A stretch of DNA of 64,000 nucleotides from NCBI GenBank assembly GCA_016187515.1, contig JACPJN010000009.1, positions 132,891 to 196,890 on the forward strand, written 5' to 3'. The notes beneath the pieces are model-generated. The model saw only the letters and a program-made list of their open reading frames with translations, was not told the origin of the DNA and made no database searches. Below, piece after piece: positions 2,226 through 56,257 of this stretch. The first letter of the stretch is position 1; each line of letters begins with the position of its first letter. Made by a program: the position numbers and the translations under genes. Origin of the DNA: Candidatus Uhrbacteria bacterium. GTDB taxonomy: Bacteria > Patescibacteriota > Patescibacteriia > GWA2-47-26.

Positions 2226-2230
2226 ATTAT

Positions 2231-3037: not shown

Positions 3038-3081
3038 GTAAATATTCTATCAGCATTATCTAAAACCGGCAACTTACCACT

Positions 3082-3477: not shown

Positions 3478-3523
3478 TATGAGACCATTGAACAGGTGTT
3501 AGTTCTTCAACATTTTCATTATA

Positions 3524-29094: not shown

Positions 29095-29330
29095 CCCTTA
29101 ATCCCCTCCTTGGAAAGGAGGGGAAATCTTAACCACCCCTTAATCCCCTCCTTGGAAAGGAGGGGAAATCTTAACCACCCCTTAATCCCCTCCTTGGAAA
29201 GGAGGGGAAATCTTAACCGCCCCTTCTCCCACCCCCTCTAACTCCCCCTCGCCTGCCCGCCTCTGGAGGGGGCAGGGGGAGAAACCTCCTTGCCTGTCCG
29301 CCTCTGGCGGGGAAAGGAGGGGAAATCAAA
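29095..29330. repeat. Three tandem copies of a 42-bp hairpin unit (cttaaccaccccttaatcccctccttggaaaggaggggaaat), then a GC-rich palindromic segment
   Basis: Direct read. Confidence 0.85.
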
Positions 29331-31034: not shown

Positions 31035-31829
31035 TCAATTTATGCTCTCCACCTTAACGCTCACCACCCCCACTTTCGGATTGGCCAAGTGTTCAAATGC
31101 GGCCCGATCCAGATCAATCACCCGCTCCGGGTGCTTTAGCCGGTCCGGGCCAAAATCATTAACCTTCACGACTACGGATTTACCGTTATCCACATTGGTT
31201 ACTTTCAACCGCGCGCCTGGAGGATAGTCCGGGGAAGCGGCACAATGGCAGTTCTTATATTTATACCAGCTCGCGAGCCCTTTTTCAAGTACCTGATTGT
31301 GGGAAAATACCGCTAAATAAGTCGTCCCTGTGGAAATCTCCGCCCGCAAGCGGTTTTTATCCGCAACGCTTTGCGAAGGAATATCCCGCCAGACATTATC
31401 ATCACCCCAGACCCGCAGGATTTTTTTTCCTAACGCTTCGCTAGGATAGCGAATTTCAACCGGCAGAGTTACCCCGGCGTTTCCCTTGATCACCAGACGA
31501 TACATGGGGGTAATCCGATGGACTTCCCCCAGGTTTAAATAGTACTCCGAGGCAAAAGTCGCGATCTCCACGCGGCTGCCGCCTAGAAGCGCTCCGGGCA
31601 TTATCCCGATTTTGACTCGCTCTCCCAGATTGCCCAACGTTATCCCTTTAACCGCCGTATCACTGTCAATCGTCCAGGCCTTTTGCTCCACCCCGATTGC
31701 CAATACTTGGGCCTGGGCGGAAGGAATGAAGAATGGAGAATGCAGAGAAAGAAAGAGCATGAAAAATGAAGCGTGAAGAATGAAGAATCTTGAACGATTG
31801 GTATTCATAATTCTTAATTCTACATTCAT
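31035..31829 (-). CDS. RlpA-like double-psi beta-barrel lipoprotein (septal lytic transglycosylase family)
   Basis: C-terminal GLASWYKYKNCHCAASPDYPPGARLKVTNVDNGKSVVVKVNDFGP fits the DPBB fold. Confidence 0.65.
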   Translation of the reverse strand: MNVELRIMNTNRSRFFILHASFFMLFLSLHSPFFIPSAQAQVLAIGVEQKAWTIDSDTAVKGITLGNLGERVKIGIMPGALLGGSRVEIATFASEYYLNLGEVHRITPMYRLVIKGNAGVTLPVEIRYPSEALGKKILRVWGDDNVWRDIPSQSVADKNRLRAEISTGTTYLAVFSHNQVLEKGLASWYKYKNCHCAASPDYPPGARLKVTNVDNGKSVVVKVNDFGPDRLKHPERVIDLDRAAFEHLANPKVGVVSVKVESIN

Positions 31830-33188: not shown

Positions 33189-33290
33189 AGCACTCGGTGT
33201 ACGAATTACGAATGACGTTGCGAATATTACAAATTTGAACTCAACAACTTATTCGTAGTATTCGTTCAAGATTCGTAATTCGTACACAAT
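33181..33290. repeat. AT-rich repeats (cgaattacgaatg, attcgtaattcgtac)
   Basis: Direct read; upstream of the 32859..33188 start. Confidence 0.7.
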
Positions 33291-34321
33291 CAAAATGTTT
33301 TTCCTCGATCTTTTCCGCGCCGGACGTATTCATCGCCAATTACGCCCTCATCATACAAACGCTTGACTTTCATTTCCATGGTGACCATGCCCTCCTTGGC
33401 CGAGGTCTGAATGACCGAAGGAATCTGCGCCACTTTATTTTCGCGGATCAAATTGGCAACGGCCGGATTCATAATCATCATCTCGCGGGCGGCCACCAGT
33501 CCTCCTTTGAGCGCCGGAATCAGCTGCTGCGAGATTACGGCGCGCAAGGAACCGGCCAACTGCAAGAGCACTTGCTTTTGCCGCAAGCCCTCAAACATAT
33601 CAATGACGCGCTCGACAGTGGTGGCCGCGGTTTGCGTATGCAAGGTCGAAAGCACCAAGTGGCCGGTCTCGGCCGCGGTGAGCGCCGCTTGAATGGTCTC
33701 CAAATCGCGCATCTCGCCAACCAGAATGACATTGGGGTCCTGGCGGAGCACGTATTTCAAGGCCGCGGCAAAAGTCGGCGTATCATCATCAACCTCGCGC
33801 TGTTCAATCAAACTGCGCGCGTTGGAATAAACAAACTCAATCGGGTCTTCAATCGTAATGATATGCGCGTGCCGCTCCTGGTTCATAATTTCAATCATCG
33901 CGGCCAGCGTAGTGGATTTTCCGGAGCCGGACGGACCGGTAACGAGCACCAGCCCGCTATTCAATTTAGTAAGACCGTAGATCGTCTCGTCAAATCCCAG
34001 GGCAACCGGATCGGGAATTTGCTTGGGTATCAGCCGCGCGGCCAGTCCCATCAGGCCCTGCTGAAAATGAAAATTAATGCGAAAGCGCCAGCTATCGAGC
34101 GAATAAGCAATATCCAAATCCCGCTCCCGCTCCAGCCGCTCCAGCTGCGCTTTATTCAAAAGTTCCTGCGCGATTTGCTCCACCTCGCCTTTCGGTATTA
34201 CCGTCTGATTAACAAAAGTAAGCTCTCCGGCAACGCGCAAAGTCGGGGCGGAGCCGCTCACCACATGGATGTCCGAGGCCTTTTTCTCAATCGCGAGTTT
34301 AAAGTATTTGTCGATTTTCAT
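33290..34321 (-). CDS. pilT: Type IV pilus retraction ATPase PilT
   Basis: Walker A VTGPSGSGKSTT and the PilT/PilU secretion-ATPase core. Confidence 0.9.
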   Translation of the reverse strand: MKIDKYFKLAIEKKASDIHVVSGSAPTLRVAGELTFVNQTVIPKGEVEQIAQELLNKAQLERLERERDLDIAYSLDSWRFRINFHFQQGLMGLAARLIPKQIPDPVALGFDETIYGLTKLNSGLVLVTGPSGSGKSTTLAAMIEIMNQERHAHIITIEDPIEFVYSNARSLIEQREVDDDTPTFAAALKYVLRQDPNVILVGEMRDLETIQAALTAAETGHLVLSTLHTQTAATTVERVIDMFEGLRQKQVLLQLAGSLRAVISQQLIPALKGGLVAAREMMIMNPAVANLIRENKVAQIPSVIQTSAKEGMVTMEMKVKRLYDEGVIGDEYVRRGKDRGKTF

Positions 34322-34327
34322 ATTTTT

Positions 34328-34400
34328 GGTCGGGGCACTGGGAATTGAACCCAGCCCTCACGCACCCGAAGCGTGTATACTGCCGATATACTATGCCCCG
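34328..34400 (-). tRNA. tRNA-Pro(CGG), CCA encoded
   Basis: Reverse complement CGGGGCATAGTATATCGGCAGTATACACGCTTCGGGTGCGTG...GGTTCAATTCCCAGTGCCCCGACCA. Anticodon loop TTCGGGT. Confidence 0.8.
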
Positions 34401-34530
34401 CTAGTCGGTATTTTATTATACCCCATCCTCACCCCATTTGACAAATCCACCTCATTTTTCTATAATATACCCGCTTTGGGGACAACCCCAGCACAACCAA
34501 GCATGCCTGAAAAAGGCAAGGAGGATTTCA

Positions 34531-35187
34531 ATGGCCAAAACCACCGGCTTGACGCCCCGTTTCGAAGTACATGAGCTGGGTCCTGGCTACCACGCCACGG
34601 ACATCTGGGACGAAGACGGCGATCACGAATCGCGCGGAACCGTCTGCAACAACGAGCGCACCTTCGATTCCGGCGTGCTCGCCACCGACGAGACCATCGA
34701 GGTCACCTGCGGCCGGCTCATCGTGATCTGCCTGGACTACAGCGACAGGCAGAACGAGGACGCGGAACCCTCGCACGATCTCGAACCGGACGACGACTCG
34801 GTGGTGCTCCACAAGGGCAGCCGCTACCGCCTCGTCGCCGTAGGACTGACCCAGTACCATCGCGTGTACGGCCCCGAGGAAGAGGCCGAGGAGGAACCCG
34901 CGGCCGAGGAGCCGCCTCCGCCGCCGGATGCTTCCGCCGCCCCGGCCGAAGACGCGCCGCGCACCGTCCCGGAAACGCCGGCCGCGAGCCGGTCGGACAC
35001 GCCTTCGGCGAGCGCGCCGTCCGCGAGCCCGGTGCCGCCCCCGTCCCGCGGCGGACTGGGACTGCCGTCCGTCACGCGCAGCAGCGTTCCGGAAGGGAGC
35101 GGCATCAGCGTGCCGCCCGGGTCGAGTGCCGACCTCGCGCCCCGCGCGACCGGAGGCGAAGAGGGCGAGGACGGTTCGTCCGCCTAG
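34531..35187 (+). CDS. Hypothetical protein: about 110-aa globular N-domain plus acidic Pro/Ala-rich disordered tail; strongly GC-rich relative to surroundings
   Basis: A perfect AAGGAGG sits 8 nt upstream of the ATG. The overlapping minus ORF translates as Arg-rich nonsense. Confidence 0.5.
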   Translation: MAKTTGLTPRFEVHELGPGYHATDIWDEDGDHESRGTVCNNERTFDSGVLATDETIEVTCGRLIVICLDYSDRQNEDAEPSHDLEPDDDSVVLHKGSRYRLVAVGLTQYHRVYGPEEEAEEEPAAEEPPPPPDASAAPAEDAPRTVPETPAASRSDTPSASAPSASPVPPPSRGGLGLPSVTRSSVPEGSGISVPPGSSADLAPRATGGEEGEDGSSA

Positions 35188-35293
35188 ACCAATAGGCCAA
35201 GCGCACCTTCCAACAACGGCGCGCAAGCAGAACCTGCTTGCGCGCCTTTTCACTTACTGGCCCGAAATTTCGCTTGACAATCCTATGCTAATC

Positions 35294-36619
35294 CTATTGA
35301 GCCGGCGCTGGCACAGGCGCGGGCGCGGTTTCCCCAAAGGGATTGGCTCCCTCTGGTTGCGCCGGTTTTTCAAGCGCCTCGAATTTTTGCTGTAGCCGTT
35401 CAATGCGCTCCAAAACATTGCCCGGCACGGCGCGGCGCTTGCGTTCACTGTCAAAAATCAAATTAAACATTTTCTGTCCCAGCTCGCGCTGGATCGCTTC
35501 CATGGTCTCGCGCGCCACGCGGTATTCTCCGTCCCGTAAGGCCTCTTTAACCGGTATTAACAGATCATCCAGCTGCGTTTTAAGTTCCGGATCTTTAACG
35601 CGGCGAAGCGGCTCAATAAACCCGCGCATCATCTGCAGCGCACCGTTTACGTCGCCGGGCCAGCCGGGCTCATGAAACGCGTCCTGAAGAATACCGCGCG
35701 CATCCTCATACTCTCCCGCTTGATAAGCCGCTTTGGCTTCCGCGTATTTGGCGGCAAAATTCGCCATGATCGTATTGCACTCCTCCCGGCTAAACACCTT
35801 ATCCACCCATTTCTGTTTACAAAGATTCTTGGCGCGATTCAGGTCGCGCAAAACATTATTAAGCTCCTTCGGGAGTTCCACGGCCTGCCGAATCCGATTG
35901 ATCTCTTCCCAAAACTCTCCGGTATCTCCGCACTCTTCTCCCTCGAGTACGTCTTTCATGGCATCGTTATCCGTAGCCGCGTTTAATTGCGTCTGACACT
36001 GGGTTAGGCGTTCCTTAATCGCGTCCAGCTTAACCAGTTCATCTTGAGAACCTTTAAGGCGCACCAGTTGCTTGCGCACTTTCGCTGATTCCCGCAACTG
36101 ATCGCGCCACTCGCGCAGCCGGTCTTGTTTCCACCGCGCGGTATCTTGCCCCTCACGCTGCTCATGATCATCATCCTTCATCTCCGGCCTCGACTCGCCC
36201 GGACCCGCGTCCTTTAATTCTCCTTGCGGCGGATAATTACTGCATGGGCCGGGCATCTCCACTCCATTTACTCGACAGGTCTCCTTTACCGGCTCTTTCA
36301 CTTCCAAACCCGGCTGCGGGACCGGTGGCTGCCCTTCTACGGCGGGGGGCTGGGGTTGCACTGGCTGCGCGGGCTGTGTAAGTTCGGCGGACGGCGCTGG
36401 CGGCGTCACGGTTTGCCCTTGATCTTGGGCAATCAAATACCCGGGCTCCGGAAGCAGCTCGGATAAAATCGCCCCCTGCTGCTGCGCCGCGCTACCCAGC
36501 TGGATTGACCCGGAAAGCAGAAATAACGCGGTGGCGGCCAAAACGCTGCCCGCGATTTTAATCGTCTTTTCCTTTACGTCGCCACGATGATAGTGGCAAA
36601 AATAACAGAGATTGCGCAT
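35294..36619 (-). CDS. Secreted/anchored coiled-coil protein, hypothetical
   Basis: N-terminal TM, Pro/Gln-rich linker, long charged helical region. Confidence 0.45.
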   Translation of the reverse strand: MRNLCYFCHYHRGDVKEKTIKIAGSVLAATALFLLSGSIQLGSAAQQQGAILSELLPEPGYLIAQDQGQTVTPPAPSAELTQPAQPVQPQPPAVEGQPPVPQPGLEVKEPVKETCRVNGVEMPGPCSNYPPQGELKDAGPGESRPEMKDDDHEQREGQDTARWKQDRLREWRDQLRESAKVRKQLVRLKGSQDELVKLDAIKERLTQCQTQLNAATDNDAMKDVLEGEECGDTGEFWEEINRIRQAVELPKELNNVLRDLNRAKNLCKQKWVDKVFSREECNTIMANFAAKYAEAKAAYQAGEYEDARGILQDAFHEPGWPGDVNGALQMMRGFIEPLRRVKDPELKTQLDDLLIPVKEALRDGEYRVARETMEAIQRELGQKMFNLIFDSERKRRAVPGNVLERIERLQQKFEALEKPAQPEGANPFGETAPAPVPAPAQ

Positions 36620-36625
36620 ATAACT

Positions 36626-36686
36626 TAGAGTTTAGAGTTTAGAGTTTAGAGTTTAGAGTTTAGAGTTTAGAGTTTAGAGTTTAGAT
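36626..36686. repeat. Tandem 8-nt repeat (agagttta) x about 8
   Basis: Direct read; between the coiled-coil gene start and the GT4 gene end. Confidence 0.9.
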
Positions 36687-36687
36687 A

Positions 36688-37818
36688 TTATAGCACACCC
36701 TTGTCCACAAGCGAAGTGTATAACTTTTCGGTCTCCGCCACCACTTTATCCCAGTCAAAATACCGCTTAATAAAGCCCAAGGCCAGCTTCCCTTTCTCCC
36801 GCACAATTTCCGGGTGATTGATTAGTCCGACAATCTTTTCGGCCAGATCGCTGACGTTCCCCACTGCAAATGGCACTCCGGAATGGTCAATGGCTTCCAG
36901 ATTCTCCGGGATATTGGAAATCAAGACGCATTTTCCGAAACTCATGGCTTCCAAAATCGTCAGTGATAATCCTTCGGACTCGGAAGGATGCACATAAAAA
37001 TAGGCGTGCGCGTAAAGCTGCTTCAGCTCGTCTCCGGTTTGATAACCGGTAAAAATAATCCGGTGATCTGCGGCTGCCAACTGTTTCAGGTACGCGCTGT
37101 AATCCGCGGTAAAAGAAGGCGCCCCCACAATAACCAGCTTCATCTCGCCCTTGACTTCCTCCGGAACTTGTCGGTAGGCCTCGATCAGATAGTGAATTCC
37201 TTTATGTTTAATCAGACGCGCCACGGTGACCAAATAACCATTTTTCTGCAGTCCCCATTGTTTAAGCGCCGCGCTGGATTCCATTTTGTGAATTTCTACC
37301 GCGTTGGGAATATAATGAACATTTTTTTTGTATGCTTGCCGGCAATATCTCACAATTGAATGTGAGACGCCAATCGTGGTATGCGGAATATGCGTGGCAC
37401 ACCACTCTCCGATGCGCAGCACGAACCGCGCCCAAAACCCCCACTTGGCATGAAACCGATCAATGGAATGAAACGTCACTACGATTTTAGCGCGCGTAAA
37501 AAGCCGAGGAATCCAGGATAAGAGCGCCGGGCCGACACCGTGGAAATGGATGATGTCGTACCTAGAGCGTAGAGCATAGAGCGTAGAGCATAGCGTAGAG
37601 GAAATCGTGCCTAAGTGTTTGGTTGGAATTTCCGGCACGCGCGTGAGTTTCACGCCATTCCACATATCATCTTTGGTGGCCACATATCTTTTACGCACAA
37701 ATACCGTAACCTCATGCCCGCGCTTCGCCAAGCGCGTAGATAATTCCTCCACATGCCGCTCCACTCCCCCGTCCCGATAGAAAGGTATGGCCTTCTGTCC
37801 AATGAATGCTATTTTCAT
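36688..37818 (-). CDS. Family 4 glycosyltransferase (GT4)
   Basis: C-terminal EGLSLTILEAMSFGKCVLISN resembles the GT4 E-x7-E region; N-terminal Rossmann-like fold. Confidence 0.8.
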   Translation of the reverse strand: MKIAFIGQKAIPFYRDGGVERHVEELSTRLAKRGHEVTVFVRKRYVATKDDMWNGVKLTRVPEIPTKHLGTISSTLCSTLYALRSRYDIIHFHGVGPALLSWIPRLFTRAKIVVTFHSIDRFHAKWGFWARFVLRIGEWCATHIPHTTIGVSHSIVRYCRQAYKKNVHYIPNAVEIHKMESSAALKQWGLQKNGYLVTVARLIKHKGIHYLIEAYRQVPEEVKGEMKLVIVGAPSFTADYSAYLKQLAAADHRIIFTGYQTGDELKQLYAHAYFYVHPSESEGLSLTILEAMSFGKCVLISNIPENLEAIDHSGVPFAVGNVSDLAEKIVGLINHPEIVREKGKLALGFIKRYFDWDKVVAETEKLYTSLVDKGVL

Positions 37819-37828
37819 AAAAACGCTA

Positions 37829-38569
37829 TCAAACTACTAACGATAACCTCGCCCGCTCGTCGCGTATGAGCGTCAAGACCTCTCGTTTCAGAACTTTTCG
37901 GACTAGCTGAAACTTCGCTGCGGGAAGGAGATAATTTAGGTCCTCCGAAAGTATCCGGTCGGTAATCTCTTGATCCACAAAGACATACAATTTCGCAAAA
38001 AAATCTTTTACCTTCATTCCGCTCCCCTCCCGGATCACCTCGGCGGAATAGTGGTACCCGCGCATAAAGAAAAAATGGACATCATACACGTCTCTTCCGG
38101 CAATGTTTCCGTGCGCCTCCGATCTTCCGATGAGCGCAAGAAGTTTATGCGCAAACATCGTCTCGATCGTCTGACACGTCAAAATACGATCAATCTCGGG
38201 CAGACGTTGCGGAGCGTAAGTATTCGCAGAAAGCAATGGAAATGCTGTGTCAATCTTTATAGCATTTCTTCCCTCCTCAATATACCGAAGAAAATATTGG
38301 ATGCCTTTTTTACTTGAATCCTTCACGGAAAGTCCAAGCGCCGTAAAGATGCGCTCAAGCGCGGTACGCGTTGCGACAATTTGTTTTTTGTCACCCGCAA
38401 AGTCAAAGTCAAGGTCAACGGAAAACCGATCAAGCCACCCGAGCATTGAGGCGCAAGTCCCTCCTTTAAAATAAAGCACATCTGGCAAAAACGGATCGTC
38501 CGCAATTTGCTCCAATACTCTATAAAGCCACGCTTTGTGCAGGGCGTCGTTTTTATTTGGTATGGTCAT
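37829..38569 (-). CDS. AbiEii/AbiGii-family nucleotidyltransferase toxin (type IV TA)
   Basis: YFKGGTCASMLGWLDRFSVDLDFDF matches the AbiEii signature. Confidence 0.7.
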   Translation of the reverse strand: MTIPNKNDALHKAWLYRVLEQIADDPFLPDVLYFKGGTCASMLGWLDRFSVDLDFDFAGDKKQIVATRTALERIFTALGLSVKDSSKKGIQYFLRYIEEGRNAIKIDTAFPLLSANTYAPQRLPEIDRILTCQTIETMFAHKLLALIGRSEAHGNIAGRDVYDVHFFFMRGYHYSAEVIREGSGMKVKDFFAKLYVFVDQEITDRILSEDLNYLLPAAKFQLVRKVLKREVLTLIRDERARLSLVV

Positions 38570-39176
38570 AACCTTTCATAATAGAGGACGGGTATCCAAT
38601 CGCGCGAACAATATCCCGCACGGCATCCCAATCAACTGCGGAAGGAACATCAAAGTGTTTTTTGGGATTAAAATAAAGCGTATCGGCAACCGCGCGCGGC
38701 AGATCGGCCATGCGAATTCCATCCCGAGTGTGCACTCCCGCGTCATTAAAAAGGAATTCGTCTGCCAACTTTCGTGAGCGATAGTCGTAACCGGCCAGAG
38801 CGAATCGCCGTGACACGCCGCTCACTATTGAAACAGAACGCGGCGGCTGACTAATAACCCCGGCCTCGAAAAGGACCGTCTCGCACGAAATATACGCCGA
38901 GCCATGCAATGCTTTTAGACCGATTAGATACGGATGAAGATCGGCCGGTTTTTTTATGGAATACAAACCCTTCTGAATCCTAAACAGCAGTCCCTGCGCT
39001 ACATACCGGGAAAGAGTCATATGCAGGGTGGAGGCCTTGCGGATATCCCATAGATTGGCAAGATCATTAACATGAAATACCTGCTCGCGAAGCGCCGCCA
39101 AACGCGAAAAACGCTCGCCGGACGACTCTCGGGAGCGAATAATGCGTTTATCGGCTTTTAGCATATTGCTGTTCAT
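38553..39176 (-). CDS. AbiEi-like antitoxin/transcriptional regulator
   Basis: Position and size relative to AbiEii; start trimmed to MNSNMLKADKRII. Confidence 0.5.
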   Translation of the reverse strand: MNSNMLKADKRIIRSRESSGERFSRLAALREQVFHVNDLANLWDIRKASTLHMTLSRYVAQGLLFRIQKGLYSIKKPADLHPYLIGLKALHGSAYISCETVLFEAGVISQPPRSVSIVSGVSRRFALAGYDYRSRKLADEFLFNDAGVHTRDGIRMADLPRAVADTLYFNPKKHFDVPSAVDWDAVRDIVRAIGYPSSIMKGYDHTK

Positions 39177-39352
39177 TAACCTATACTTATATGTATAGTA
39201 TAAATGAACTAAAAAATTTGTCAAAAGCCGTGGGCAAGGATTGGAAAATGCAACTAACCTCATCTTTCCGCTAGCTGCTTTTTATACAAAAAAACGCCCC
39301 CGGGACAAATCCCAAAGGGCTGAACAAGGAACAGCAGCGGAGAAGAATGGCA

Positions 39353-39964
39353 CTAGGTGCGGCACGGCACTCCGGGCTTGTTGCACTTGCATTCTGCGCG
39401 ACTATCGTAGCACCCGCCTGGCGGAAACGCCCCGGGTGGACAAGGCACGCTTACTCGCACACACCAGCCACATGGCGTTTCATTATCCGGACAGCAGATA
39501 TGGCAGGTACGCTGGAATCCGCAGTATTGAGTGCGGCAATTACCGCTCGGATCGGAAGGACCGCTGTGGTCTTCGTCAGCCGGATCCACGCACTCCCCTA
39601 CTGTTTCCTGCGTTGACCGACACATATTTGTCAACGGCGGGCAGGTACACGGCTTACGCTCTTCCTGCCATCCACCGCAGCATTCACCGCGGCGAGGCGC
39701 AGGACAGTACTCCCTGCAGACATACTTCACTTCTTCGCATCGCACGCAGCAGGGCGCGTCAGTCGGCCCCGGCCTATGCTCTACGCAGTGGCAGGGCTTG
39801 TTCGGCTTGGGAAGCGATCCTTGTGGCGCGTTTTCTTGAACGCCCTGGGCAAACACCAAGGTTTCCAGGGCAACGCGCTTGAGCAATCCGGTGGTGTAGC
39901 TGAACCAGAATGTGCCGATCACCAGTGGCACCAAAAACACGTACTTTCGTGATTGGCGGTTCAT
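39353..39964 (-). CDS. Secreted cysteine-rich protein (about 30 Cys), hypothetical
   Basis: N-terminal TM/signal, then dense Cys patterns (CHCVEH, CCVRCEE, CCGGW, CTCPP, CHICCPD). Confidence 0.5.
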   Translation of the reverse strand: MNRQSRKYVFLVPLVIGTFWFSYTTGLLKRVALETLVFAQGVQENAPQGSLPKPNKPCHCVEHRPGPTDAPCCVRCEEVKYVCREYCPAPRRGECCGGWQEERKPCTCPPLTNMCRSTQETVGECVDPADEDHSGPSDPSGNCRTQYCGFQRTCHICCPDNETPCGWCVRVSVPCPPGAFPPGGCYDSRAECKCNKPGVPCRT

Positions 39965-39973
39965 GATTATCTC

Positions 39974-40615
39974 CTACGGACGCTCGCGGGGTGGTTCAGG
40001 ACAAGGCCCGCAAGGATACGTGTCACATACAAAATAACACCCTTTGCTATCCTTACAACAACGCTCCGGTAGTTTTTCCGTGCATTGACGGCCTCGGCAC
40101 CTGGTATAACAACCGTTCGGTCCGTGGATGTTATGTGCGTCACAAAGCTGTGCTTCGCACCGCTGCTTAGTTTGGCAGTGGCTGACTTCTTCGGCGTCGG
40201 ATGCGTGTCGCGGATTCTCGCATGCACTCGGACATGAGCACTTCCGCTCATTGCACATGATCCAGCCAATGTCGGTCCGGCAGCATGTGGTGAACACAAA
40301 CTGACCGCAGCTATCACACCCGCTCCTGCATCGCTCACCTTTGAGCGCCTCACGGCACTTCTCACGCGTCGGGAAGCTCGGGCTGGCGCGAGCCGGCTCC
40401 GGCTCCTCGTCCGCCGCGATAGCATCGTTACTCACATGCGGAGTCGTGGCCTCGGCAGTGACCTGTGCCTGCCTTTCCTGCGCGTCTTGCGCGTAGGCCC
40501 ACGCCACCGCGCCACTGATGAGGATGACCGTCAGTATGACGCTCAACATGGACGTCCATGCCTTCTGGCTGAGAAGACCGCCGAAGTAGCGCTTTCGCGA
40601 ACGATTGATTGTCAT
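39974..40615 (-). CDS. Secreted cysteine-rich protein (paralog-like), hypothetical
   Basis: Signal anchor, then Cys-dense region (CRSGCDSCGQ, TTCCRTD, CSCPSACENP, CGPCPEPP). Confidence 0.5.
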   Translation of the reverse strand: MTINRSRKRYFGGLLSQKAWTSMLSVILTVILISGAVAWAYAQDAQERQAQVTAEATTPHVSNDAIAADEEPEPARASPSFPTREKCREALKGERCRSGCDSCGQFVFTTCCRTDIGWIMCNERKCSCPSACENPRHASDAEEVSHCQTKQRCEAQLCDAHNIHGPNGCYTRCRGRQCTEKLPERCCKDSKGCYFVCDTYPCGPCPEPPRERP

Positions 40616-40748
40616 GGTACTACCTCCTATTTAAACCATAACCCCTTATTTAATATATGTCAACCCTAATTTGTCCACAGAATTTTAAGCAAGAAAAGAC
40701 CGAGTGCGAGATACTTCAACACTCGGTATTCATGTGCCTCCATAATTG

Positions 40749-41921
40749 TTACCACTGCCAGGGAGAAATCTCAAACTGCAAACCAGTGGTAATCCGCAGA
40801 TCCTGTCCGGGGTTAACATGGACGATTTCCTGTTCAAGCCGCATCCACTCAAACCCTATCCAATTCCAGACCAACGTAACTTGCCCACTCACCGGAATGC
40901 GTAGACCAAACTTCCCATTGGCCTCCCGATGCAGACTTTCCGAAGAGAGCGGCAAAAACAAACGCAATTCTCCGAACGGCTGTACCACCCCGCCGAGTTT
41001 GGGCATTACCCCCTCAAGTAACACCATCCAAAATGAGGAATGCGCGTAAACTACCTCGGGCATTGCCGGTTTTTCCATCTGCGGTGACACGCGATTCATC
41101 ATTGTTTCCGCGTGATGAATGTGCCGCAGGCGCCAATCCGCGCCGCCGGGTCCGACATGCAGCCGCAGACGCCAACTATCCGGATCAAACATACTTTCCG
41201 GTATGCTCCCGGACGTGCGTTCCACAAGCCCGTCCAATTCCGCTTGCAGGTCTGCACACCGCTCGGCGCTTTGTTCATCCGACTTGGCCGCATCCCGAGC
41301 TTGCCTGCTAACGGCCTTAAGAGTATCCCGCAAAACCGGACATAACGGCGCAGTCCGTTGCGTTCGCGCGACAAGCACCAGCCCGACTCCTCCGCTTCCT
41401 CGAAGATGCGAAAGTATATCATTATGCACCCCTTCCTCAACATCCCCAAACACAATTCCGGATCGCTTTCCATCTCCATACAAACTCACTCCCAAAATCA
41501 AAACGCCCCAGGAAAACGCTCGGCCATACGCTGCTTGCGGAAGAATCGCGTCAGCGGCTCCTGTCCAATCCACCAGTACATCATCGTGTATTTCTTCCCC
41601 GTCATCTGCTGTGGATTGCTCCGGACTTCTCGCTTCTTCAGCATGCCATCGCAACATCAAGGCGGTCCGCACATTCGCGTACCATGCACCAAACCCGCCA
41701 GCCGGTTTTATCAAACCGTAGGTGGTCAATTGCAGTTCCACTCCACCGCTGACGGTAAAATGCGGCTGATCTTCATGAATTTCCGCCCCCATCTGAACAT
41801 CACGCAGATTCAATTGCGGCCTGAGATACCACGACCTGCCTTGCGCATAACCATTTGGCAAAGCCATGACTTGCGCAAGCACAACCACTACAGCATGCCG
41901 ATAGAAAACTGTGCAGATCAT
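40749..41921 (-). CDS. Putative outer-membrane beta-barrel protein
   Basis: Signal peptide, amphipathic alternating strands, C-terminal aromatic end FEISPWQW. Start codon overlaps the upstream gene (ATGA). Confidence 0.4.
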   Translation of the reverse strand: MICTVFYRHAVVVVLAQVMALPNGYAQGRSWYLRPQLNLRDVQMGAEIHEDQPHFTVSGGVELQLTTYGLIKPAGGFGAWYANVRTALMLRWHAEEARSPEQSTADDGEEIHDDVLVDWTGAADAILPQAAYGRAFSWGVLILGVSLYGDGKRSGIVFGDVEEGVHNDILSHLRGSGGVGLVLVARTQRTAPLCPVLRDTLKAVSRQARDAAKSDEQSAERCADLQAELDGLVERTSGSIPESMFDPDSWRLRLHVGPGGADWRLRHIHHAETMMNRVSPQMEKPAMPEVVYAHSSFWMVLLEGVMPKLGGVVQPFGELRLFLPLSSESLHREANGKFGLRIPVSGQVTLVWNWIGFEWMRLEQEIVHVNPGQDLRITTGLQFEISPWQW

Positions 41922-43507
41922 TGGGAATCTCCTTTATTGATTGGTGGTTTCTTCGATCCGCTATAAAGCGAAAATCCCAGATACCCTCCGCCTCCTTGTT
42001 CACCCATCAATGCGCCAAAATGCACATCCAGGTTAAGATCCCGCAACAGTAATGACAAGGGTTCAATAGCCACAGTCACACCGACCATATTCGGAATTGG
42101 AATTATGCCTGCCGTAGGCGGCACTATAGACCCACCGGAACGTTCACCCATCGGCTCATAACCCAACCACAGGTAGCGGGCCTCAAATCCAGCTCCCACA
42201 TTGCGCACGCCGCCGTTATTCCAAAAGCGTCCACGGATACCAAAGCCGCCACCGCCTGCCAAATCAGGCGGAGGGCTGCCAGCAAGATACCCGACAAGAC
42301 CAAAGCGTAACCGCAAGAGCAGGCATAGATCCATCGGCACTTCACCCTCGTAGGTGAGTACATATGGAATTGGCGTAAGCGAAGTTCCAACTACCCCACC
42401 GCCCCGCACCAATCTGCCCGCCGCAAATGACGGCACACCGCACCACCAGCATGGCGGCCAAAGGATCTGCACCGGGCCTTTACAGCATCCGGGCCAAAAC
42501 CAACTCTTGAGCCCACGCTCGCAGGTCAGGCACGTCCACCGCAACCAGGTTTCCCAGCATTTCACGCAGTCCTCTTCATTTTCTGATTCTTCTGGTGTTG
42601 GTGGCCTGGGACTGGGTGGCGCTGGGGGTTTAGGCAGTGGGGAGGGCAACTTAATCGCCACCCTAAGAGATACTACCACGTGCAAGGCCGCAAAACGCTC
42701 CTCATCACCTGATTTTTCCGCTCGCCCAAGCCGCTCATAGCGCGGAGGATTTCGTTTGATGGATGTGGCCTTCGCGTTAGGAAATACCTCGCTCCACAGC
42801 TTACCTACCTTGTCCTTCAAGTGGTCATACGCCCAGTTATCAGCAAAGAAGATCCGTAGCAGTCCCAGTTGAACATGCGGGATTTGCTCTTTAGCATATT
42901 CATCGCTTTGCGCGACCTTCTGATACTCTTCCTTTTGCCCATCCGTAAGCGCAGCCCGATCTTCTCGGGCCAACTGGAGGTCCGCCTGGCCGGTAGAGCG
43001 CGTATTAAAATCCTGCGCATCAGATTGGCCGCGTCCGGTTGCGGTGAACTCGGAATGAACGACAGCAGTGTACCCTTTCGGCAGCGCGTCATTCAGACAC
43101 GCGCGGAGCGTTTCTCCCCACTCTTCTATATCGTTGGCGGTGTCAACCACGCTATACGCAAATTTTTGGTATTCTGAATACTTTCGAAGACCGTCCGCAT
43201 CCCACGCATGACTGCCGGATATCCAACTTTCGAGTCCGGGTATCAGCGGCATCTCTTCAGGCAATCTGAATTGCCCAAGTTTGTATCCAGAGACCTTAAA
43301 TTCTTGCGTAATCTCGTAGCTCACAACTCCATTTTCACAGCGCACCACGCGATCGCTTGCGACCGCATTGAGTTGAACGATACAAGGCGCAAGCGCGTCG
43401 CACACATCAGTCGTCACGTCTTGCGCAGCGTTGGCGTACGCCGAACTGCTGACCATGGCCCAAAGGATGCACACCCCGGGCCAGGCGTTCGTAAGTGGCC
43501 TTTCCAT
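41918..43507 (-). CDS. Large secreted protein with Trp/Cys-rich module (CVKCWETWLRWTCLTCERGLKSWFWPGCCKG...CWWCG) and Gly-rich C-terminal region
   Basis: Signal peptide; first gene of the apparent 4-gene operon. Confidence 0.45.
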   Translation of the reverse strand: MERPLTNAWPGVCILWAMVSSSAYANAAQDVTTDVCDALAPCIVQLNAVASDRVVRCENGVVSYEITQEFKVSGYKLGQFRLPEEMPLIPGLESWISGSHAWDADGLRKYSEYQKFAYSVVDTANDIEEWGETLRACLNDALPKGYTAVVHSEFTATGRGQSDAQDFNTRSTGQADLQLAREDRAALTDGQKEEYQKVAQSDEYAKEQIPHVQLGLLRIFFADNWAYDHLKDKVGKLWSEVFPNAKATSIKRNPPRYERLGRAEKSGDEERFAALHVVVSLRVAIKLPSPLPKPPAPPSPRPPTPEESENEEDCVKCWETWLRWTCLTCERGLKSWFWPGCCKGPVQILWPPCWWCGVPSFAAGRLVRGGGVVGTSLTPIPYVLTYEGEVPMDLCLLLRLRFGLVGYLAGSPPPDLAGGGGFGIRGRFWNNGGVRNVGAGFEARYLWLGYEPMGERSGGSIVPPTAGIIPIPNMVGVTVAIEPLSLLLRDLNLDVHFGALMGEQGGGGYLGFSLYSGSKKPPINKGDSQ

Positions 43508-43584
43508 GGGTTGCTCCTTAATTTGTTGGCTGTTTTATTTCAAAGGACTATCTTTGTCTTAACATGACTATAAATATCTGTCAA

Positions 43585-43680
43585 TGACCGTAACCTCATG
43601 TCCGCGCCGCGCCAACCGCACCGACAACTCCTCAACATGCCTTTCCACTCCCCCATCTCTTTTCGGGTTTAAATCAAGTG
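43585..43680 (-). pseudogene. Truncated 5' fragment of a GT4 glycosyltransferase paralog (about 80% identical to 37700-37790)
   Basis: Encodes NPKRDGGVERHVEELSVRLARRGHEVTV versus FYRDGGVERHVEELSTRLAKRGHEVTV in the intact GT4 gene; no downstream gene body. Confidence 0.55.
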
Positions 43681-43717
43681 CGCTTTTGAGGTTTAATTAA
43701 CATGTGGAAAACATTGC

Positions 43718-43890
43718 CTTGACAAGTAATTACTTATATGATAAAGTGATAATACGCAAAGTAAGTCTTGCCGAACACCGACCCTATGGCGGGTCGTTCG
43801 ATGAAAATCGAACTAGGCAGTACCCCCTTTATGGGGGCGTTTGCGTTTTATAGGGCAGAAAGTATGCCCTGCTTTTTTAATTTACGCAGA
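43718..43890 (+). ncRNA. Candidate small RNA: sigma70-like promoter (TTGACA...TATGAT), three hairpins, intrinsic terminator GGGCAgaaagtaTGCCCTGCTTTTTT
   Basis: Hairpins cgaccctatggcgggtcg and ccccctttatggggg, then the terminator stem and U-tract at 43858-43887. No ORF. Confidence 0.4.
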
Positions 43891-44144
43891 ATATCTAGCG
43901 CCCATTGATTGCCATCATGTGCGTCACGCACAAGACCACAAAAAGTGCTCCATCTGTATCCTGTCCCGACTCGTCAACGTAGGCGTAGAGTTTTTGCATA
44001 GGTGTTCATTGTACCACGGATGCGGTGCTGTTATCTAGAAATCCAGAAACAAAAAACCCGCCCGCGGATTTTCCCGGGGCGGAAAGGACAAAAGGATGAT
44101 CTGATGTTTTTACGGCGCGGCGTTTCGCGGGACCGGATGCCTCC

Positions 44145-44390
44145 TTATAAGACAAAGGCCGCGATTCCCAATCCGATCCCGGCAACCGCGCATAGGCAGC
44201 CGCACACCGCGACGGACAAGCCCGTCCAAAACAGCCGATCGAATTGATCGGAGGTGTCGGGGCCTTCCGGGTCTCCCGAATCCTCAAACGCCATGACAAA
44301 ACACTCCATCCACGCAATGGCCGCGCCTCCTATGCCGAAAACTATCGCCAGAATTCCGACGAGGAAAAGAACCATAGCCCAGATGATCAT
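44145..44390 (-). CDS. Small two-TM membrane protein
   Basis: ORF with two hydrophobic helices. Confidence 0.35.
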   Translation of the reverse strand: MIIWAMVLFLVGILAIVFGIGGAAIAWMECFVMAFEDSGDPEGPDTSDQFDRLFWTGLSVAVCGCLCAVAGIGLGIAAFVL

Positions 44391-44555
44391 GATGGTTGCC
44401 CCCTGGCTTCAGTACACCTCTTTTTGAAACTGCTTGCCGCAACAGTCACACGTGTATAGAGCTCCTCGCACGTAATCCTCTCTTGGCTTCCGATCATGGT
44501 CTAACCTCCTGCTGTAAGTACACCACACTGCTTTTCCACTGTCAAGCGCGCAAAT

Positions 44556-45380
44556 CTACCGATTGATATAGGCCTGGTAATCCGCGGAGGATCGCCAACT
44601 CGCCGCGGGGATTGTCGGATGCACGGTTTTTCCGCCGAAGCGGACGGATTGCTTAATTTCATCCAAAGTATATCCGCCGTATGTATAGGCATTCACATAT
44701 CCGTACCACCACTGCTTTGAACTGACGGTTTTTTGATGAAATAAACGGTTGAATACTCCGGGCAAACGCTCGTCCAGCCCTTGGGCCAGATTTTTTGCCA
44801 ACGCTTGCTCGGTCGGCAGAGCGCGGACGCGAGCAAATCCGTAAGCAAAAGTTCCGGCGCTTAACTCTTCGCTTGCGCCGTTGACCGCCGGTGTTGACCT
44901 GGCTGGCGGACGAACTGGCGCGGCCGGAGCAACTGGAATAGCAGTTGTCACGGCAGGCGCCGGAGCTGACGCGGCGGCCGGGGGCGGAGCGGCGGAAACC
45001 GCCACGGCATACTCCTCCGAGAGCCGCGTATTCAAGGTGAGGTCGGAAACGCGCAGGCGATAGCGATAATCTTCCCCGGTACGCACCGAGCCGTCCTCAT
45101 AACGTTGTATCCCCTTGCCGATCCGTATCCGCACATCTCCCGTAACCGCGGTTCCGGTCCCGTCATTGCGAAGAATTTCAACAAAATAAAAGTCCGACTC
45201 GGGCGGATCAATCCAGGTCAGCTCGACCCGGACGCCATCGCTAACCAAGCGCACCTCCGTCGGTATGGCCGGCGCGCTGAAATCCCGCGCCGCGCCGGAA
45301 GACGGCTCTGGCCCGATAGTCGCCAGTCCCGGAAAGGGCAGCGCTATAGCCATGAAGATGATCCAGAAAAAATACCGCAT
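44556..45380 (-). CDS. Secreted protein with FN3-like N-domain, Pro/Ala-rich linker, conserved C-domain (WWYGYVNAYTYGGYTLDEIKQS)
   Basis: Signal peptide and domain layout. Confidence 0.45.
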   Translation of the reverse strand: MRYFFWIIFMAIALPFPGLATIGPEPSSGAARDFSAPAIPTEVRLVSDGVRVELTWIDPPESDFYFVEILRNDGTGTAVTGDVRIRIGKGIQRYEDGSVRTGEDYRYRLRVSDLTLNTRLSEEYAVAVSAAPPPAAASAPAPAVTTAIPVAPAAPVRPPARSTPAVNGASEELSAGTFAYGFARVRALPTEQALAKNLAQGLDERLPGVFNRLFHQKTVSSKQWWYGYVNAYTYGGYTLDEIKQSVRFGGKTVHPTIPAASWRSSADYQAYINR

Positions 45381-45535
45381 AATGATAACTTGAAACCGTT
45401 GAGCAATTGATTATTCGTGTTCATTCGTCAGGCCGCCTGGCCAGGGCAGCGCAGGAAACCGTCGATTCCGGCGGCCGTCTATTCGTGAATATTCGTGTGC
45501 ACCTGCGCAGGTGTTAATTCTTCAACAATCTCAAT

Positions 45536-47047
45536 TTACCTTAACAGACGGCCGAATAAACGCCCCACCCGCCCGATGGTGTTTTGCACCGTATTGGCGG
45601 CCAGCTCCAATACGGATGGCAGCGTTTCGGTAAATATTCCGGTAACCGGACTCACGATTGGCGTAACCACGCTCCCCACTGCCGACGCCGTGCGCTTAAA
45701 GGCCAGTTGAAGGGGGACAATCGCGTCTTGCGGCTGCGGCACCGCGCGCGCCAGATCGCGCAGAGCGGCGCGCGTTTCGGTAAATGTCGCTTTAATATTT
45801 TGACCGATCTCTTGCGCGCTTGATTGTAAGCGTGAAAGCGCTTCGTAAGTCACTTCCAAAGGCGCCTCCGGAGTCGGCGCTTCCGTAAACGACGGCGCGG
45901 TTTTGGGAATTTCCAGCGGTTGAGCCGGAGGTAACCCGGGCGCAACTGGCGGCGCCGAAACTTGTCCCCGGGCGCGCAACTCCCGAGGCGAAACCGGAGG
46001 CGGCCGCACTCCGGCAGACGGCGTTGGCCCCACTCCCGGCTCCGGCGGCTCTAAAGTCGGAACCGTTGCTTTTGGCGGTTCTTCCTTAGTCCTTACGCGT
46101 TCTTCCTTGAATAAGGGAGCGGGTTTTAGCGGCGCCGGAGTAATTTCTTCTTTCGGAGTTAACTTCGGCGGCGGAGGTTGCGCCACCGGCGGAGTCGGCA
46201 GTCCCGCGATCGTAAGCGCCTGGGGCAAACTGTATTCGCTTTCTTGGCCAGCGGACTTGGCGCGCACGTAAATTGAATGGACACCGGGCGGCACATCTTT
46301 TGTATCGAGGATCGTTTCCCACTGCCCGCGCGCGTCCGCGACAGTACGCGCTTCCAGCCGCGCCGGAATTTCTACGGTTACCGCGCTTTGGGGAAACGCG
46401 GCGCCCCTTAGATCAACTTTCTCGCCTTGCGCGACGTTAAAACGCGCCAGCGCTACGGTGGGGGGAAGAAAAATATCGGAAAGCTTAAACTGCACCACTC
46501 CCGCCGGCACATTCACCGTGTAGGTCAGCCGCGCGGATATCCGTCCCGCGCTATCGCGTCCATACACGCCAAAGGTATGCGTCCTTCCGGCCGGAATTGC
46601 CGAAATCAACGCGGCAAAAAAACCGTCCGCTCCGGCGCCGGCCTCTTTTACGACTTGCTCATTTTGTAAAATCGTCACGGCCGCGCCGGGATAAGCGCGC
46701 CCGGCGAGCGCCGCGTCCACCACGGTCGGCCCGGAGGTCGTTGATCCGCCCGCGCTGATGCCGGAAATCACTGTCGTACCGCCCGTGGCTGCCGCGGGTT
46801 GAACAAACGCCGCGCTTCCGGCTACTGCGGCATAAGACAAGCTGGTACTGCGCCCAATCGCGGTCTCCCCCACCCGTCCGTGCAAAATATAAGAAGCGGA
46901 AGCGGAGCGCGTCCCGCCATCATCCAGTATCGGATCAAGAATTTTAAAAGACGTGCTCGTAATTTCCGTCGCCGATACTCCACGAATTCCGACGAATAAA
47001 AATACGAATACCAACGAACACAACATTATTCGTCGCCATTTGTTCAT
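45536..47047 (-). CDS. Secreted Ig-like/Pro-rich surface protein, hypothetical
   Basis: Signal peptide (start trimmed to MNKWRRIM), beta-rich repeats, Pro-rich C-terminal half. Confidence 0.45.
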   Translation of the reverse strand: MNKWRRIMLCSLVFVFLFVGIRGVSATEITSTSFKILDPILDDGGTRSASASYILHGRVGETAIGRSTSLSYAAVAGSAAFVQPAAATGGTTVISGISAGGSTTSGPTVVDAALAGRAYPGAAVTILQNEQVVKEAGAGADGFFAALISAIPAGRTHTFGVYGRDSAGRISARLTYTVNVPAGVVQFKLSDIFLPPTVALARFNVAQGEKVDLRGAAFPQSAVTVEIPARLEARTVADARGQWETILDTKDVPPGVHSIYVRAKSAGQESEYSLPQALTIAGLPTPPVAQPPPPKLTPKEEITPAPLKPAPLFKEERVRTKEEPPKATVPTLEPPEPGVGPTPSAGVRPPPVSPRELRARGQVSAPPVAPGLPPAQPLEIPKTAPSFTEAPTPEAPLEVTYEALSRLQSSAQEIGQNIKATFTETRAALRDLARAVPQPQDAIVPLQLAFKRTASAVGSVVTPIVSPVTGIFTETLPSVLELAANTVQNTIGRVGRLFGRLLR

Positions 47048-47090
47048 AATTTGTGGCCATTCGCGGATTATTATAACCATTCGTGGATTA

Positions 47091-49358
47091 TTATTCCTCC
47101 GATTGTGGAGGGGAGATTGGTGGCGCGAGCTGGCCAGTAAGCGTCTGTATCTTCGCCTTCACTTCCGCATTACCCGGATTAAGTTCTTCCACTTTCCTGA
47201 AATCAGCCACGGCCTCCGCGCTCTTGCCCTGTTTTTCGTATAGCGTTCCCCGAATGAAACGCGCGTTGGCATAGTCCGGATTGCGCGCCAAAAGCGCGTT
47301 CAAAATCCGTTCGGCATTGGCGCGATCATCATCCTTATCGCGATTGACATACGCTCGCGCGAGTTGCACCAAAAATTCCATATTGCCGGAGCCGTACGGC
47401 AGCGCCCGCTCCAGTATTTGAACCGCGCCATCGCGATTACCCTCCGCCTCTAAAAAGACGGCCATTACAATATGCGCTTCCAAATAATTCGGCTTGAGTT
47501 CAATCGCGCGCTCCAGGTCGCGCCGCGCTTCCTCGGGTTTTTGCATCGCGCTTTGCAGCTGTCCGCGCCATAAATACAGCACGGGATTTGACGGCTCCAG
47601 TTCGATCGCCCGCGAAAACGCGTCAACGGCCCACTGCCTCGCCTCCGGGGCAAGCGCGATCACCTGCGCGTACATGGTCCCCAACTGCTCCCAGGCCGCG
47701 GCGGAATTGGGGGCCAGCTCGGTCGCGCGGCGCGCGGTTTGCACCGCGCCGACAATGCGCGCGCCGACTTTATCCGCGTCCGGTTTTTCCTGGCGTGACG
47801 CTTCCGTCGCGCTCTGAAATTGCAAACGCGTCAGGGTAAGATAATAGCGCACGCTCTCCGGATTACGCCCCGCCGCGCGCGCGACCGTATCAATAGCCAA
47901 ATCGTATTCCCGCCGCGCTCCCTGACTCAACCCTCGCGCAAACGCGATCTCACCGGCGTAAAAACGCCCCAGATACACCCCCAGCGTGAGAAAAGCCGCC
48001 AAAAGCGCCAGAGTGCAAAATGACGCGCCGATCGCGTATCGCGTACTATCATAGGCAATATTCCATTTTTTGAATGTCTCCGACGGTCTGGTCAATCCAA
48101 ACGCGGCCATGGTAAGCGCGAGCGCGGAAAAAAACGCGACCCAAAGCGCGGTCGTAAACGGCACGGCGAAAAGCGCGAAAACCACAATCAGCCAAAGTAT
48201 GCCGCTATGCCGAACCAGGTCAGTATTCTGCGAGCCGGCGTTTGATCTGGGCGCGGATCTGCCGCTAAATATCATGCTCCCGACCGTCAATACTAAAAAC
48301 AAAAACGGCAGTAATCCCAAAATACCCAGCGTGGCGAGCAATCCGGACGCTTCGGAAAACGGCGCGGAAAAACGCAGCGACCAGAGCAGATTCAAATTGA
48401 AACTTTCCGGCCGAAACGCGGAAAACGCGTGCGCGAAAGTTCCCGGACCGCTGCCGATAAGCGCCCGTCCGATTCCGTCCATAATCGTCCCCCCCGCGAT
48501 CTTGAAGGAAGTGAGCTGGGCCAAAGAGACCTCGGCGGGCAATACCGTAAGCGTGAGAAATCGCAGACCCTTGAAGATAGCCAGCAGTACAAAAATTAAA
48601 AGCGCGGTAAGCATTACCGAGATTACGGCCGGCCGCTCCTGCGACTTTTCACCGGTTGCCAGAATCACCGCGGCGGCCAAAGCGACAGCCCCAAAGATGA
48701 GTATCGCGGTATGTCCGATCGCCAGCATGGTGATATACGCAATCGCGGCCATAATTCCAAGACCGATCTTCGCGCGCCGCCCCCCGGCGTCCATCAATCC
48801 CAAAAAACCGGCCGCAAGCGGGATGGCCAGCAATATCCCAAAGCGCCCCTGGGTCAGCGCGGCCGGATTCCATTGCGGCAAAAACGGGTGGACCGGAACC
48901 GCGCCAATGACCTTTAGCCAAAAATATATCGCTCCCAGCGTGATTCCCCAAGCTAGCAGTCGGACGAGGCGCGCGATCTGCTTTTTATTGTCAACACTTT
49001 GTATAATCAAAAAATAAAGCAGCAGATAAAATGTAAGCGGTATAAATCCAAAAGTAAGCTGATCGTACGAACCAAAAAAACTCACCGTGCGATCTTTTGA
49101 AAAGATGCTGGAGATGAGCGCCACGACCCAAAGCATCAGGAGCGCCAGATCCGCCGGCGTGCGCCGAATTTCAATTTTCCGCTCCAAAAATCCGCGCAAC
49201 AGCCAAGCCAGAAAACCAATTCCCACGAGCGCGTACATAAGATATTGCTTTGGCAACTCCACGATCTCCGAGGTAAAAGGCAGAAAGAAAATGGGTATTA
49301 TAAGTAAAAGAACATATAATGACCACCGCGGAATTATTGATAAAATACGAATAAACAT
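47091..49358 (-). CDS. O-antigen ligase-like (Wzy_C) polytopic membrane protein with C-terminal TPR repeats
   Basis: Ten or more TM helices, then TPR-like repeats (AWEQLGTMYAQ..., ANARFIRGTLYEKQGKSAEAVADFRKVEELNP). Confidence 0.65.
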   Translation of the reverse strand: MFIRILSIIPRWSLYVLLLIIPIFFLPFTSEIVELPKQYLMYALVGIGFLAWLLRGFLERKIEIRRTPADLALLMLWVVALISSIFSKDRTVSFFGSYDQLTFGFIPLTFYLLLYFLIIQSVDNKKQIARLVRLLAWGITLGAIYFWLKVIGAVPVHPFLPQWNPAALTQGRFGILLAIPLAAGFLGLMDAGGRRAKIGLGIMAAIAYITMLAIGHTAILIFGAVALAAAVILATGEKSQERPAVISVMLTALLIFVLLAIFKGLRFLTLTVLPAEVSLAQLTSFKIAGGTIMDGIGRALIGSGPGTFAHAFSAFRPESFNLNLLWSLRFSAPFSEASGLLATLGILGLLPFLFLVLTVGSMIFSGRSAPRSNAGSQNTDLVRHSGILWLIVVFALFAVPFTTALWVAFFSALALTMAAFGLTRPSETFKKWNIAYDSTRYAIGASFCTLALLAAFLTLGVYLGRFYAGEIAFARGLSQGARREYDLAIDTVARAAGRNPESVRYYLTLTRLQFQSATEASRQEKPDADKVGARIVGAVQTARRATELAPNSAAAWEQLGTMYAQVIALAPEARQWAVDAFSRAIELEPSNPVLYLWRGQLQSAMQKPEEARRDLERAIELKPNYLEAHIVMAVFLEAEGNRDGAVQILERALPYGSGNMEFLVQLARAYVNRDKDDDRANAERILNALLARNPDYANARFIRGTLYEKQGKSAEAVADFRKVEELNPGNAEVKAKIQTLTGQLAPPISPPQSEE

Positions 49359-56180: not shown

Positions 56181-56257
56181 TTGTTTGAATTTGAAATTTC
56201 GGTCATTGGTATTTGTTTGTAATTTGTGATTTGTAATTTGGAATTTCAAGAACTGCG

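Follow-up and report, generated by a model that had tools for sequence, protein, structure and literature searches.

A GT4 glycosyltransferase 5′ relic beside an AbiE pair and a Cys-rich operon in an uncultivated Uhrbacterium

Genes and features at the locus

The window analyzed here, i.e., the whole stretch of 64,000 nucleotides from a Candidatus Uhrbacteria genome, contains an intact gene for a GT4 glycosyltransferase and, upstream of it, a short segment that matches part of its 5′ end. The main features are listed below in the direction in which the minus strand is read.

47091-49358, minus strand: gene for a TPR protein
45536-47080, minus strand: gene for a Big-domain protein
44556-45380, minus strand: gene for a 274-aa protein
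44145-44390, minus strand: gene for an 81-aa protein with two TM segments
43895-43999, minus strand: 34-codon ORF (MQKLYAYVDESGQDTDG…) with a weak Pfam match to DUF3800 (E = 0.22, profile positions 1-21) and a promoter-like site at 44037-44008
43719-43878, plus strand: divergent unit on the 5′ side of the relic, comprising a promoter-like site, a structured RNA, and a terminator
43582-43663, minus strand: GT4 5′ relic, 82 nt, peptide RDGGVERHVEELSVRLARRGHEVTVI
43556-43584, minus strand: promoter-like site TTGACA-N17-TAAGAC ahead of the four-gene operon, read from the sequence, with a Shine-Dalgarno sequence next to it
41918-43507, minus strand: gene for a 529-aa protein with a signal-peptide-like N-terminus
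40749-41921, minus strand: gene for a 390-aa protein with a signal-peptide-like N-terminus, overlapping the 529-aa gene by 4 nt
39974-40615, minus strand: gene for a Cys-rich 213-aa protein with an N-terminal hydrophobic anchor
39353-39964, minus strand: gene for a Cys-rich 203-aa protein with an N-terminal hydrophobic anchor
39290-39318, minus strand: intrinsic-terminator-like hairpin and T-run closing the four-gene operon
38553-39263, minus strand: AbiEi antitoxin ORF (PADLOC E = 1.7e-23, match from residue 60)
39197-39224, minus strand: AbiE promoter-like site TTGACA-16-TATACT (11/12), followed by a palindromic stretch
37829-38569, minus strand: AbiEii toxin, a nucleotidyltransferase (PF08843 E = 7e-20, score 72 bits with a 22.5-bit cutoff; PADLOC E = 2e-26)
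36688-37818, minus strand: intact GT4 glycosyltransferase, 376 aa (Pfam Glyco_transf_4 and Glycos_transf_1)
37698-37779, minus strand: segment of the intact GT4 gene homologous to the relic, codons 15-41, peptide RDGGVERHVEELSTRLAKRGHEVTVF

The DNA between the relic and the intact gene, which the earlier note had treated as one region, consists of at least two self-contained transcription units. The first comprises a promoter-like site, four genes, and a terminator, and the second comprises a promoter-like site, AbiEi, and AbiEii. Our consensus promoter scan passed over the promoter-like site of the first unit, because its −10 box does not have the final T. The −35 box of this site directly adjoins the 3′ border of the relic. 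A matching layout was found before the homologous operons of two other loci, TTGACA-N17-TAAGAG in L036 and TTGACA-N17-TACACC in L035, indicating that the operon brought the promoter-like site along and that the joint is located at approximately 43582/43581.

The 529- and 390-aa proteins of this operon contain Pro-rich and Cys/Trp-rich stretches and a Gly-rich C-terminus, and none of the operon proteins had a match in Pfam, NCBIfam, or PADLOC. When 5.8 billion proteins were searched with a word index, the 390-aa protein found only itself and the 529-aa protein found nothing. An exhaustive HMMER search with the 529-aa protein gave five matches among 1.8 billion representative proteins, and two of these led to homologous operons, one beside SecE (L035, positions 1756-4883) and the other beside a sigma-factor gene (L036, positions 210-3583). 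Both encode a pair of large proteins and small Cys-rich proteins, the latter being counterparts of the small proteins described here. The Cys-rich operon, the products of which are probably secreted, is a rare, conserved module that occurs in unrelated genomic contexts.

In the second unit, the AbiEi and AbiEii genes overlap by 17 nt, and the NCBIfam match of AbiEi, with a score under its cutoff, starts at residue 51. Because a near-consensus promoter and a palindrome lie inside the long ORF (from 39263), and because the profiles match from residues 51-60, the AbiEi protein probably starts at the ATG at 39176. The stop codon of AbiEii is located 10 nt ahead of the ATG of GT4, and GT4 is probably now transcribed from the AbiE promoter.

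The divergent unit on the 5′ side of the relic begins with a promoter-like site at 43719-43747 (TTGACA-17-TAAAGT, 10/12, with TG). It continues with a predicted multi-stem RNA of ∼100 nt at 43752-43850, for which the MFE was −49.5 kcal/mol (z = −4.15; 0 of 200 shuffles were as stable), and it ends with a terminator consisting of a hairpin and a T-run at 43851-43878. There was no plausible ORF on the plus strand downstream of the structured RNA, and the RNA had no Rfam match at E values up to 10. A single-sequence covariance model detected no homologs of it in 475 kb of related loci from 35 sources, and a scan of viral contigs gave none either. We regard 43719-43878 as a candidate small RNA gene.

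Further upstream, the 34-codon ORF is possibly the remaining 5′ end of a second gene, which would have encoded a DUF3800 protein. This ORF (MQKLYAYVDESGQDTDGALFVVL…) lies 230 nt from the GT4 relic and breaks off where the RNA terminator is located. The spacer separating the 274-aa and Big-domain genes has a GC-rich inverted repeat with four ATTCGTG copies on its flanks (45400-45500), and the short-read contigs of this organism all begin at approximately 45434, near this inverted repeat.

Downstream of GT4, the order on the minus strand is an (ACTCTAA) repeat of 8.7 copies, a 441-aa protein, a high-GC ORF, tRNA-Pro, and the T2SSE ATPase. The repeat array (36625-36685, 8.7 copies of TTAGAGT at 100% identity) fills the entire spacer from the GT4 stop codon to the ATG of the next gene, and every short-read contig of this organism breaks inside it. 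Tandem arrays with units of 7-9 nt are numerous in the window and mostly intergenic (10068-10135, 19712-19749, 21155-21218, 31724-31788, 56216-56246, 57505-57596, and others); examples are GAATTAGGT in 7.6 copies and ATTTGTG in 9.6 copies. A longer unit of 42 nt is repeated 3.3 times at 98% identity at 29088-29225, and each unit contains a hairpin (CCCCTCCTT…AAGGAGGGG). ARAGORN reported an 83-nt “tRNA-Gly(tcc)” at 29111-29193, which overlaps these 42-nt repeats and had no Rfam call, and this tRNA is probably a false prediction. The high-GC ORF (34528-35253, minus strand) has a GC content of 69% (z = +4.2) in a window of 52% GC, a codon-usage z of −4.3, and no family match. Over the C-terminal 105 residues, its product shares 59% identity with a translated region located at the equivalent position of locus L005, indicating that the ORF is at least partly conserved.

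Extent, coding state, and divergence of the relic

A blastn search with positions 43500-43760 against the window aligned 43587-43657 with 37703-37773 at 81.7% identity over 71 nt (E = 1.5e-14), and the E value of this match was 3.9e-12 when the whole window was searched against itself. A repeat search returned the same region as a direct repeat of 76 nt at 80% identity (37698-37773 versus 43582-43657, spacing 5,884 nt). With E values of 1e-12 to 1e-14, a chance match is ruled out. The identity of about 80% that had been reported from reading the sequence between 43585-43680 and the 5′ end of GT4 is therefore real, and the two N-terminal peptides quoted with it are correct. By codon register, the homology comprises 43582-43663 and 37698-37779, i.e., GT4 codons 15-41 only. 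Of the interval originally given, the part up to 43663 stands, whereas the last ∼17 nt (43664-43680, “NPK” versus “FY”) are not homologous. Uninterrupted identity between the two copies extends over at most 15 nt (GCATGAGGTTACGGT), and their differences are scattered over the full length of the repeat. Apart from the relic and the intact gene, no GT4-like sequence was detected in the window at either the DNA or the protein level.

The relic has no ATG, and an in-frame stop codon lies 12 codons ahead of the match. Its frame ends 5 codons past the match (…TVIDRYL*), and 75 nt after the relic the unrelated 529-aa gene begins (from 43507), so that no gene body follows, as had been noted. A complete GT4 is a two-domain protein with a Glyco_transf_4 N-domain and a Glycos_transf_1 C-domain; the relic has neither this full structure nor a start codon. 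It does contain the Gly-rich motif of the GT-B N-domain (…GG[VI]E.HV..L…L…GH.V.V) that is typical of the GT4 orthologous group. In tblastn and blastx searches, it matched only the N-termini of GT4 proteins; across 28 aa, it shared 86% identity with the resident gene, and the identity with orthologs was 71-86%. Furthermore, 23 of the 26 relic residues are identical to those of several family members, and the peptide falls inside the natural variation of the GT4 family. The relic is a gene fragment, a remnant of the 5′ end of GT4.

Between the relic and the resident copy, 16 of 75 bases differ, yet only 2 of 25 residues do so (T/V and K/R, both conservative). In 200,000 random placements of 16 substitutions with the same transition/transversion mix, none gave two or fewer amino-acid changes. 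This predominance of synonymous differences indicates that the relic diverged under purifying selection and was once part of a working gene. The truncation would then be recent relative to the divergence of the relic from the resident copy.

At the DNA level, the relic was 79-82% identical to the resident copy (81.7% over the 71 nt given above), 82.2% identical over 73 nt to the ortholog in L039, and 73-78% identical to the orthologs of other Uhrbacteria species; the GT4 orthologs among themselves are 67-89% identical in the same segment. The description of the segment as a diverged GT4 duplicate thus holds insofar as it is a true GT4 5′ relic, but the relic is not special to the resident copy, because the L039 ortholog (82%) is as close. 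For the same reason, a recent in situ duplication of the resident GT4 is ruled out. By these identities, the relic is a piece of another lineage of the same GT4 family, at an inter-species distance from the resident copy.

The corresponding region in related genomes and the composition of the inserted DNA

GT4 is a conserved single-copy gene in Uhrbacteria and other Patescibacteria. We found 2,589 homologs among 5.8 billion proteins; the best was a 100% identical Uhrbacteria protein at NCBI, and the next best had 77% identity. GT4 loci were collected from species-representative genomes, from metagenomes, and from the surroundings of the three closest proteins, with flanks of up to 10 kb. In the approximately 25 informative related loci, we found no AbiE genes, no Cys-rich operon, no second GT4 of this type, and no N-terminal relic (leaving aside additional matches to the N-terminal motif in L045). 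The window has ∼5.8 kb upstream of GT4 that is missing from the relatives, and none of the related loci that we retrieved had the AbiEi/AbiEii pair or the four-gene operon ahead of its GT4 ortholog, which supports the proposal that this region is inserted.

The flanks, by comparison, are kept. In L006, the order is TPR, Big, two small genes, GT4, and, further downstream, T2SSE; the downstream arrangement of GT4 and T2SSE is also kept in L005, L034, and L039, and the 441-aa neighbour of GT4 is retained in L040. The gene directly upstream of GT4 is GH42-like in L005 and L034, encodes a Big_13 protein in L032, and encodes a 291-aa protein in L006, and in L033 a GH42-like gene together with five extra genes lies upstream of GT4. 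Because the upstream neighbour of GT4 varies among the relatives, we infer that this position is a plasticity zone. A search for flanking repeats at the comparable L033 insertion found nothing relevant. We also compared 43.5-44.6 kb and the spacers between the modules with all ORFs of the related loci by blastx and found no remnants of ancestral neighbours (GH42 or the L006 genes); the GT4 relic was the sole match.

Sliding-window identity between the intact GT4 and 11 orthologs, all at least 23% divergent, revealed no clear mosaic breakpoint. No donor or empty-site genome for the insertion was found in the collections searched, in which the closest GT4 is just 77% identical. All the metagenomic contigs of this organism share the same arrangement, so there is no population polymorphism that would show the insertion to be recent.

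The composition of the six inserted genes was compared with that of the other 49 of the 55 genes of the window. The windowed GC content fluctuates widely over the whole window. The AbiE genes had GC z values of −1.3 to −1.5, the two large operon genes +0.3 to +0.5, and the Cys-rich genes approximately +1.5 to +1.6, the last being driven by GC2, i.e., by amino-acid content. In synonymous-codon likelihood, all six inserted genes had codon-usage z values of −0.75 to +0.34. The four-gene operon had earlier been called GC-shifted; with GC z values within −1.5 to +1.6 and these codon-usage values, none of the genes is an outlier, and no compositional break at the inserted DNA was detected by windowed GC, per-gene GC and GC3, or codon-usage likelihood. 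This is compatible with the insertion being old or, given that the relic is clean, with the donor having had a similar composition, as a related Uhrbacterium would.

Origin of the relic and comparison with known systems

We consider it likely that the 82 nt are a functionless remnant of a GT4 5′ end that stayed behind at the outer joint of accessory DNA lodged directly upstream of GT4. The accessory DNA was probably acquired by a homology-anchored import from a related Uhrbacterium. DNA of such a donor, carrying the operon, the AbiE pair, and the 5′ part or more of GT4, in that order, would have recombined homologously within or downstream of the resident GT4. The other end of the incoming DNA would have joined illegitimately in the recipient GT4 near codon 41, as in homology-facilitated illegitimate recombination (HFIR), a one-sided homologous import. 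One GT4 5′ end would thereby have been displaced, and the other would now head the intact gene. The inter-species level of divergence, together with the typical codon usage, indicates that the DNA most likely came from a related lineage.

In accordance with what is expected of an HFIR scar, a truncated copy of the anchor gene lies at the outer joint and the intact anchor gene lies at the inner end. At the joint itself (…ATTG|ACAGATAT), AGATAT recurs after a gap of 6 nt, possibly by chance, and there is no convincing microhomology. A simple import predicts that the displaced 5′ end has a start codon and a promoter. As the relic has neither, a second event must be assumed, in which codons 1-14 and the old promoter would have been stripped off by a deletion or by the arrival of the promoter/RNA unit. 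The 5′ border of the relic coincides with the start of the divergent promoter/structured-RNA unit.

A different history was suggested as the second option in the earlier note. Two adjacent ancestral GT4 genes would have existed as tandem paralogs, and one of them would have been lost through a deletion or through replacement by the accessory modules, so that only a 5′ stub of it is left. The relic does lie upstream of the intact GT4 in the same orientation, and a long-lived functional pair would show the synonymous-dominated divergence that we observed. However, the window holds one GT4, no relative has a second GT4 within 10 kb, and, leaving aside the motif matches in L045, neither a second gene of this type nor a relic occurs in the ∼25 related loci. 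Moreover, the resident gene is no nearer to the relic than is the ortholog of another species. We therefore consider tandem paralogs an unlikely origin of the relic.

A site-specific integrative element that inserts into the 5′ part of GT4 and restores this target with a copy of its own, as islands in tRNA genes do, would also leave a 5.8-kb insert bracketed by direct repeats of 76-82 nt, as attL and attR. The repeats share identical runs, and a toxin-antitoxin pair is typical island cargo. However, the repeats are just 80% identical, with differences along their entire length, and the upstream copy has no start codon, which a target-side copy would be expected to retain. Scans of the main proteins predicted in 33290-49358 with Pfam, NCBIfam, and PADLOC, and of the small ORFs in 43841-44528 with Pfam only, detected no integrase, recombinase, or transposase, the target was not reused in the ∼25 related loci, and there were no relatives in viral contigs. 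Without a recombinase or recurrence, and with repeats that differ throughout, an att-type duplication is poorly supported, and we judge it very unlikely. Regarding a phage or mobile-element origin in general, this was rejected because viral contigs contained nothing that matched the structured RNA, the degenerate relic pattern, AbiEii, or the 529-aa protein.

It is extremely improbable that the relic is a functional element kept as a leader or regulatory sequence between divergent promoters or as a small-peptide gene. Its position is exactly between two promoter-like sites that face outward, and its frame is open across 42 codons. However, an intact frame over 82 nt is too short to be meaningful, there is no ATG, and the sole possible start codon, an internal GTG that would give ∼26 aa, is not preceded by a ribosome-binding site. 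Furthermore, the relic has no Rfam match, and nothing comparable precedes the homologous operons of L035 and L036.

Returning to the homology-anchored import, the relic marks the AbiE pair and the Cys-rich operon as arrivals by recombination at a plasticity zone in an uncultivated Uhrbacterium. Taken alone, the relic matters little: it would be an ordinary, apparently functionless recombination scar, and acquired DNA is commonly bordered by short pieces of genes. A broader and unlikely idea is that, in Uhrbacteria, the conserved 5′ segment of the single-copy GT4 repeatedly provides the homology, as a kind of “landing pad,” through which self-contained accessory cassettes with their own promoters are swapped in by transformation-type, recombinase-independent recombination. 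The GT4 relic, the possible DUF3800 relic, and the variable upstream genes would then record the successive displacement of such cassettes. If true, this would be a direct genomic footprint of gene acquisition by CPR bacteria.

Several known systems can be compared with this locus. Like AbiE systems, which are type IV TA and abortive-infection systems, the pair predicted here has overlapping AbiEi and AbiEii genes and, upstream, a promoter-like site with a palindrome; it differs in that it is cargo of an inserted region. Genomic islands integrate into tRNA or tmRNA genes, reconstitute the gene end, and leave attL and attR as direct repeats. The present arrangement resembles such borders, in that accessory DNA with a toxin-antitoxin pair lies between two partial copies of a gene end. 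Unlike island borders, however, it has no integrase, its repeats are 80% identical, the 5′ rather than the 3′ end is duplicated, the upstream copy has no start codon, and the pattern does not recur in relatives.

Closer parallels concern HFIR and displaced gene remnants, which have been documented elsewhere and were proposed to explain fragments in T6SS and Rhs arrays (PMC5361080; PMC3240628). The mechanism of HFIR was described by de Vries and Wackernagel (2002) and Prudhomme et al. (2002), as cited in PMC5361080. The relevant cases are the orphan fragments found at Rhs/CDI loci and in the effector-immunity arrays of the Vibrio cholerae T6SS (PMC5361080). Those remnants are 3′ ends in arrays of polymorphic toxins, whereas here a 5′ end of a housekeeping-type glycosyltransferase occurs as a single case, with a mechanism that we infer. 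In both situations, the homology would be provided by a segment of a conserved gene, beside which unrelated DNA arrives; a truncated copy of this gene is found at the outer joint, and no recombinase gene is needed.
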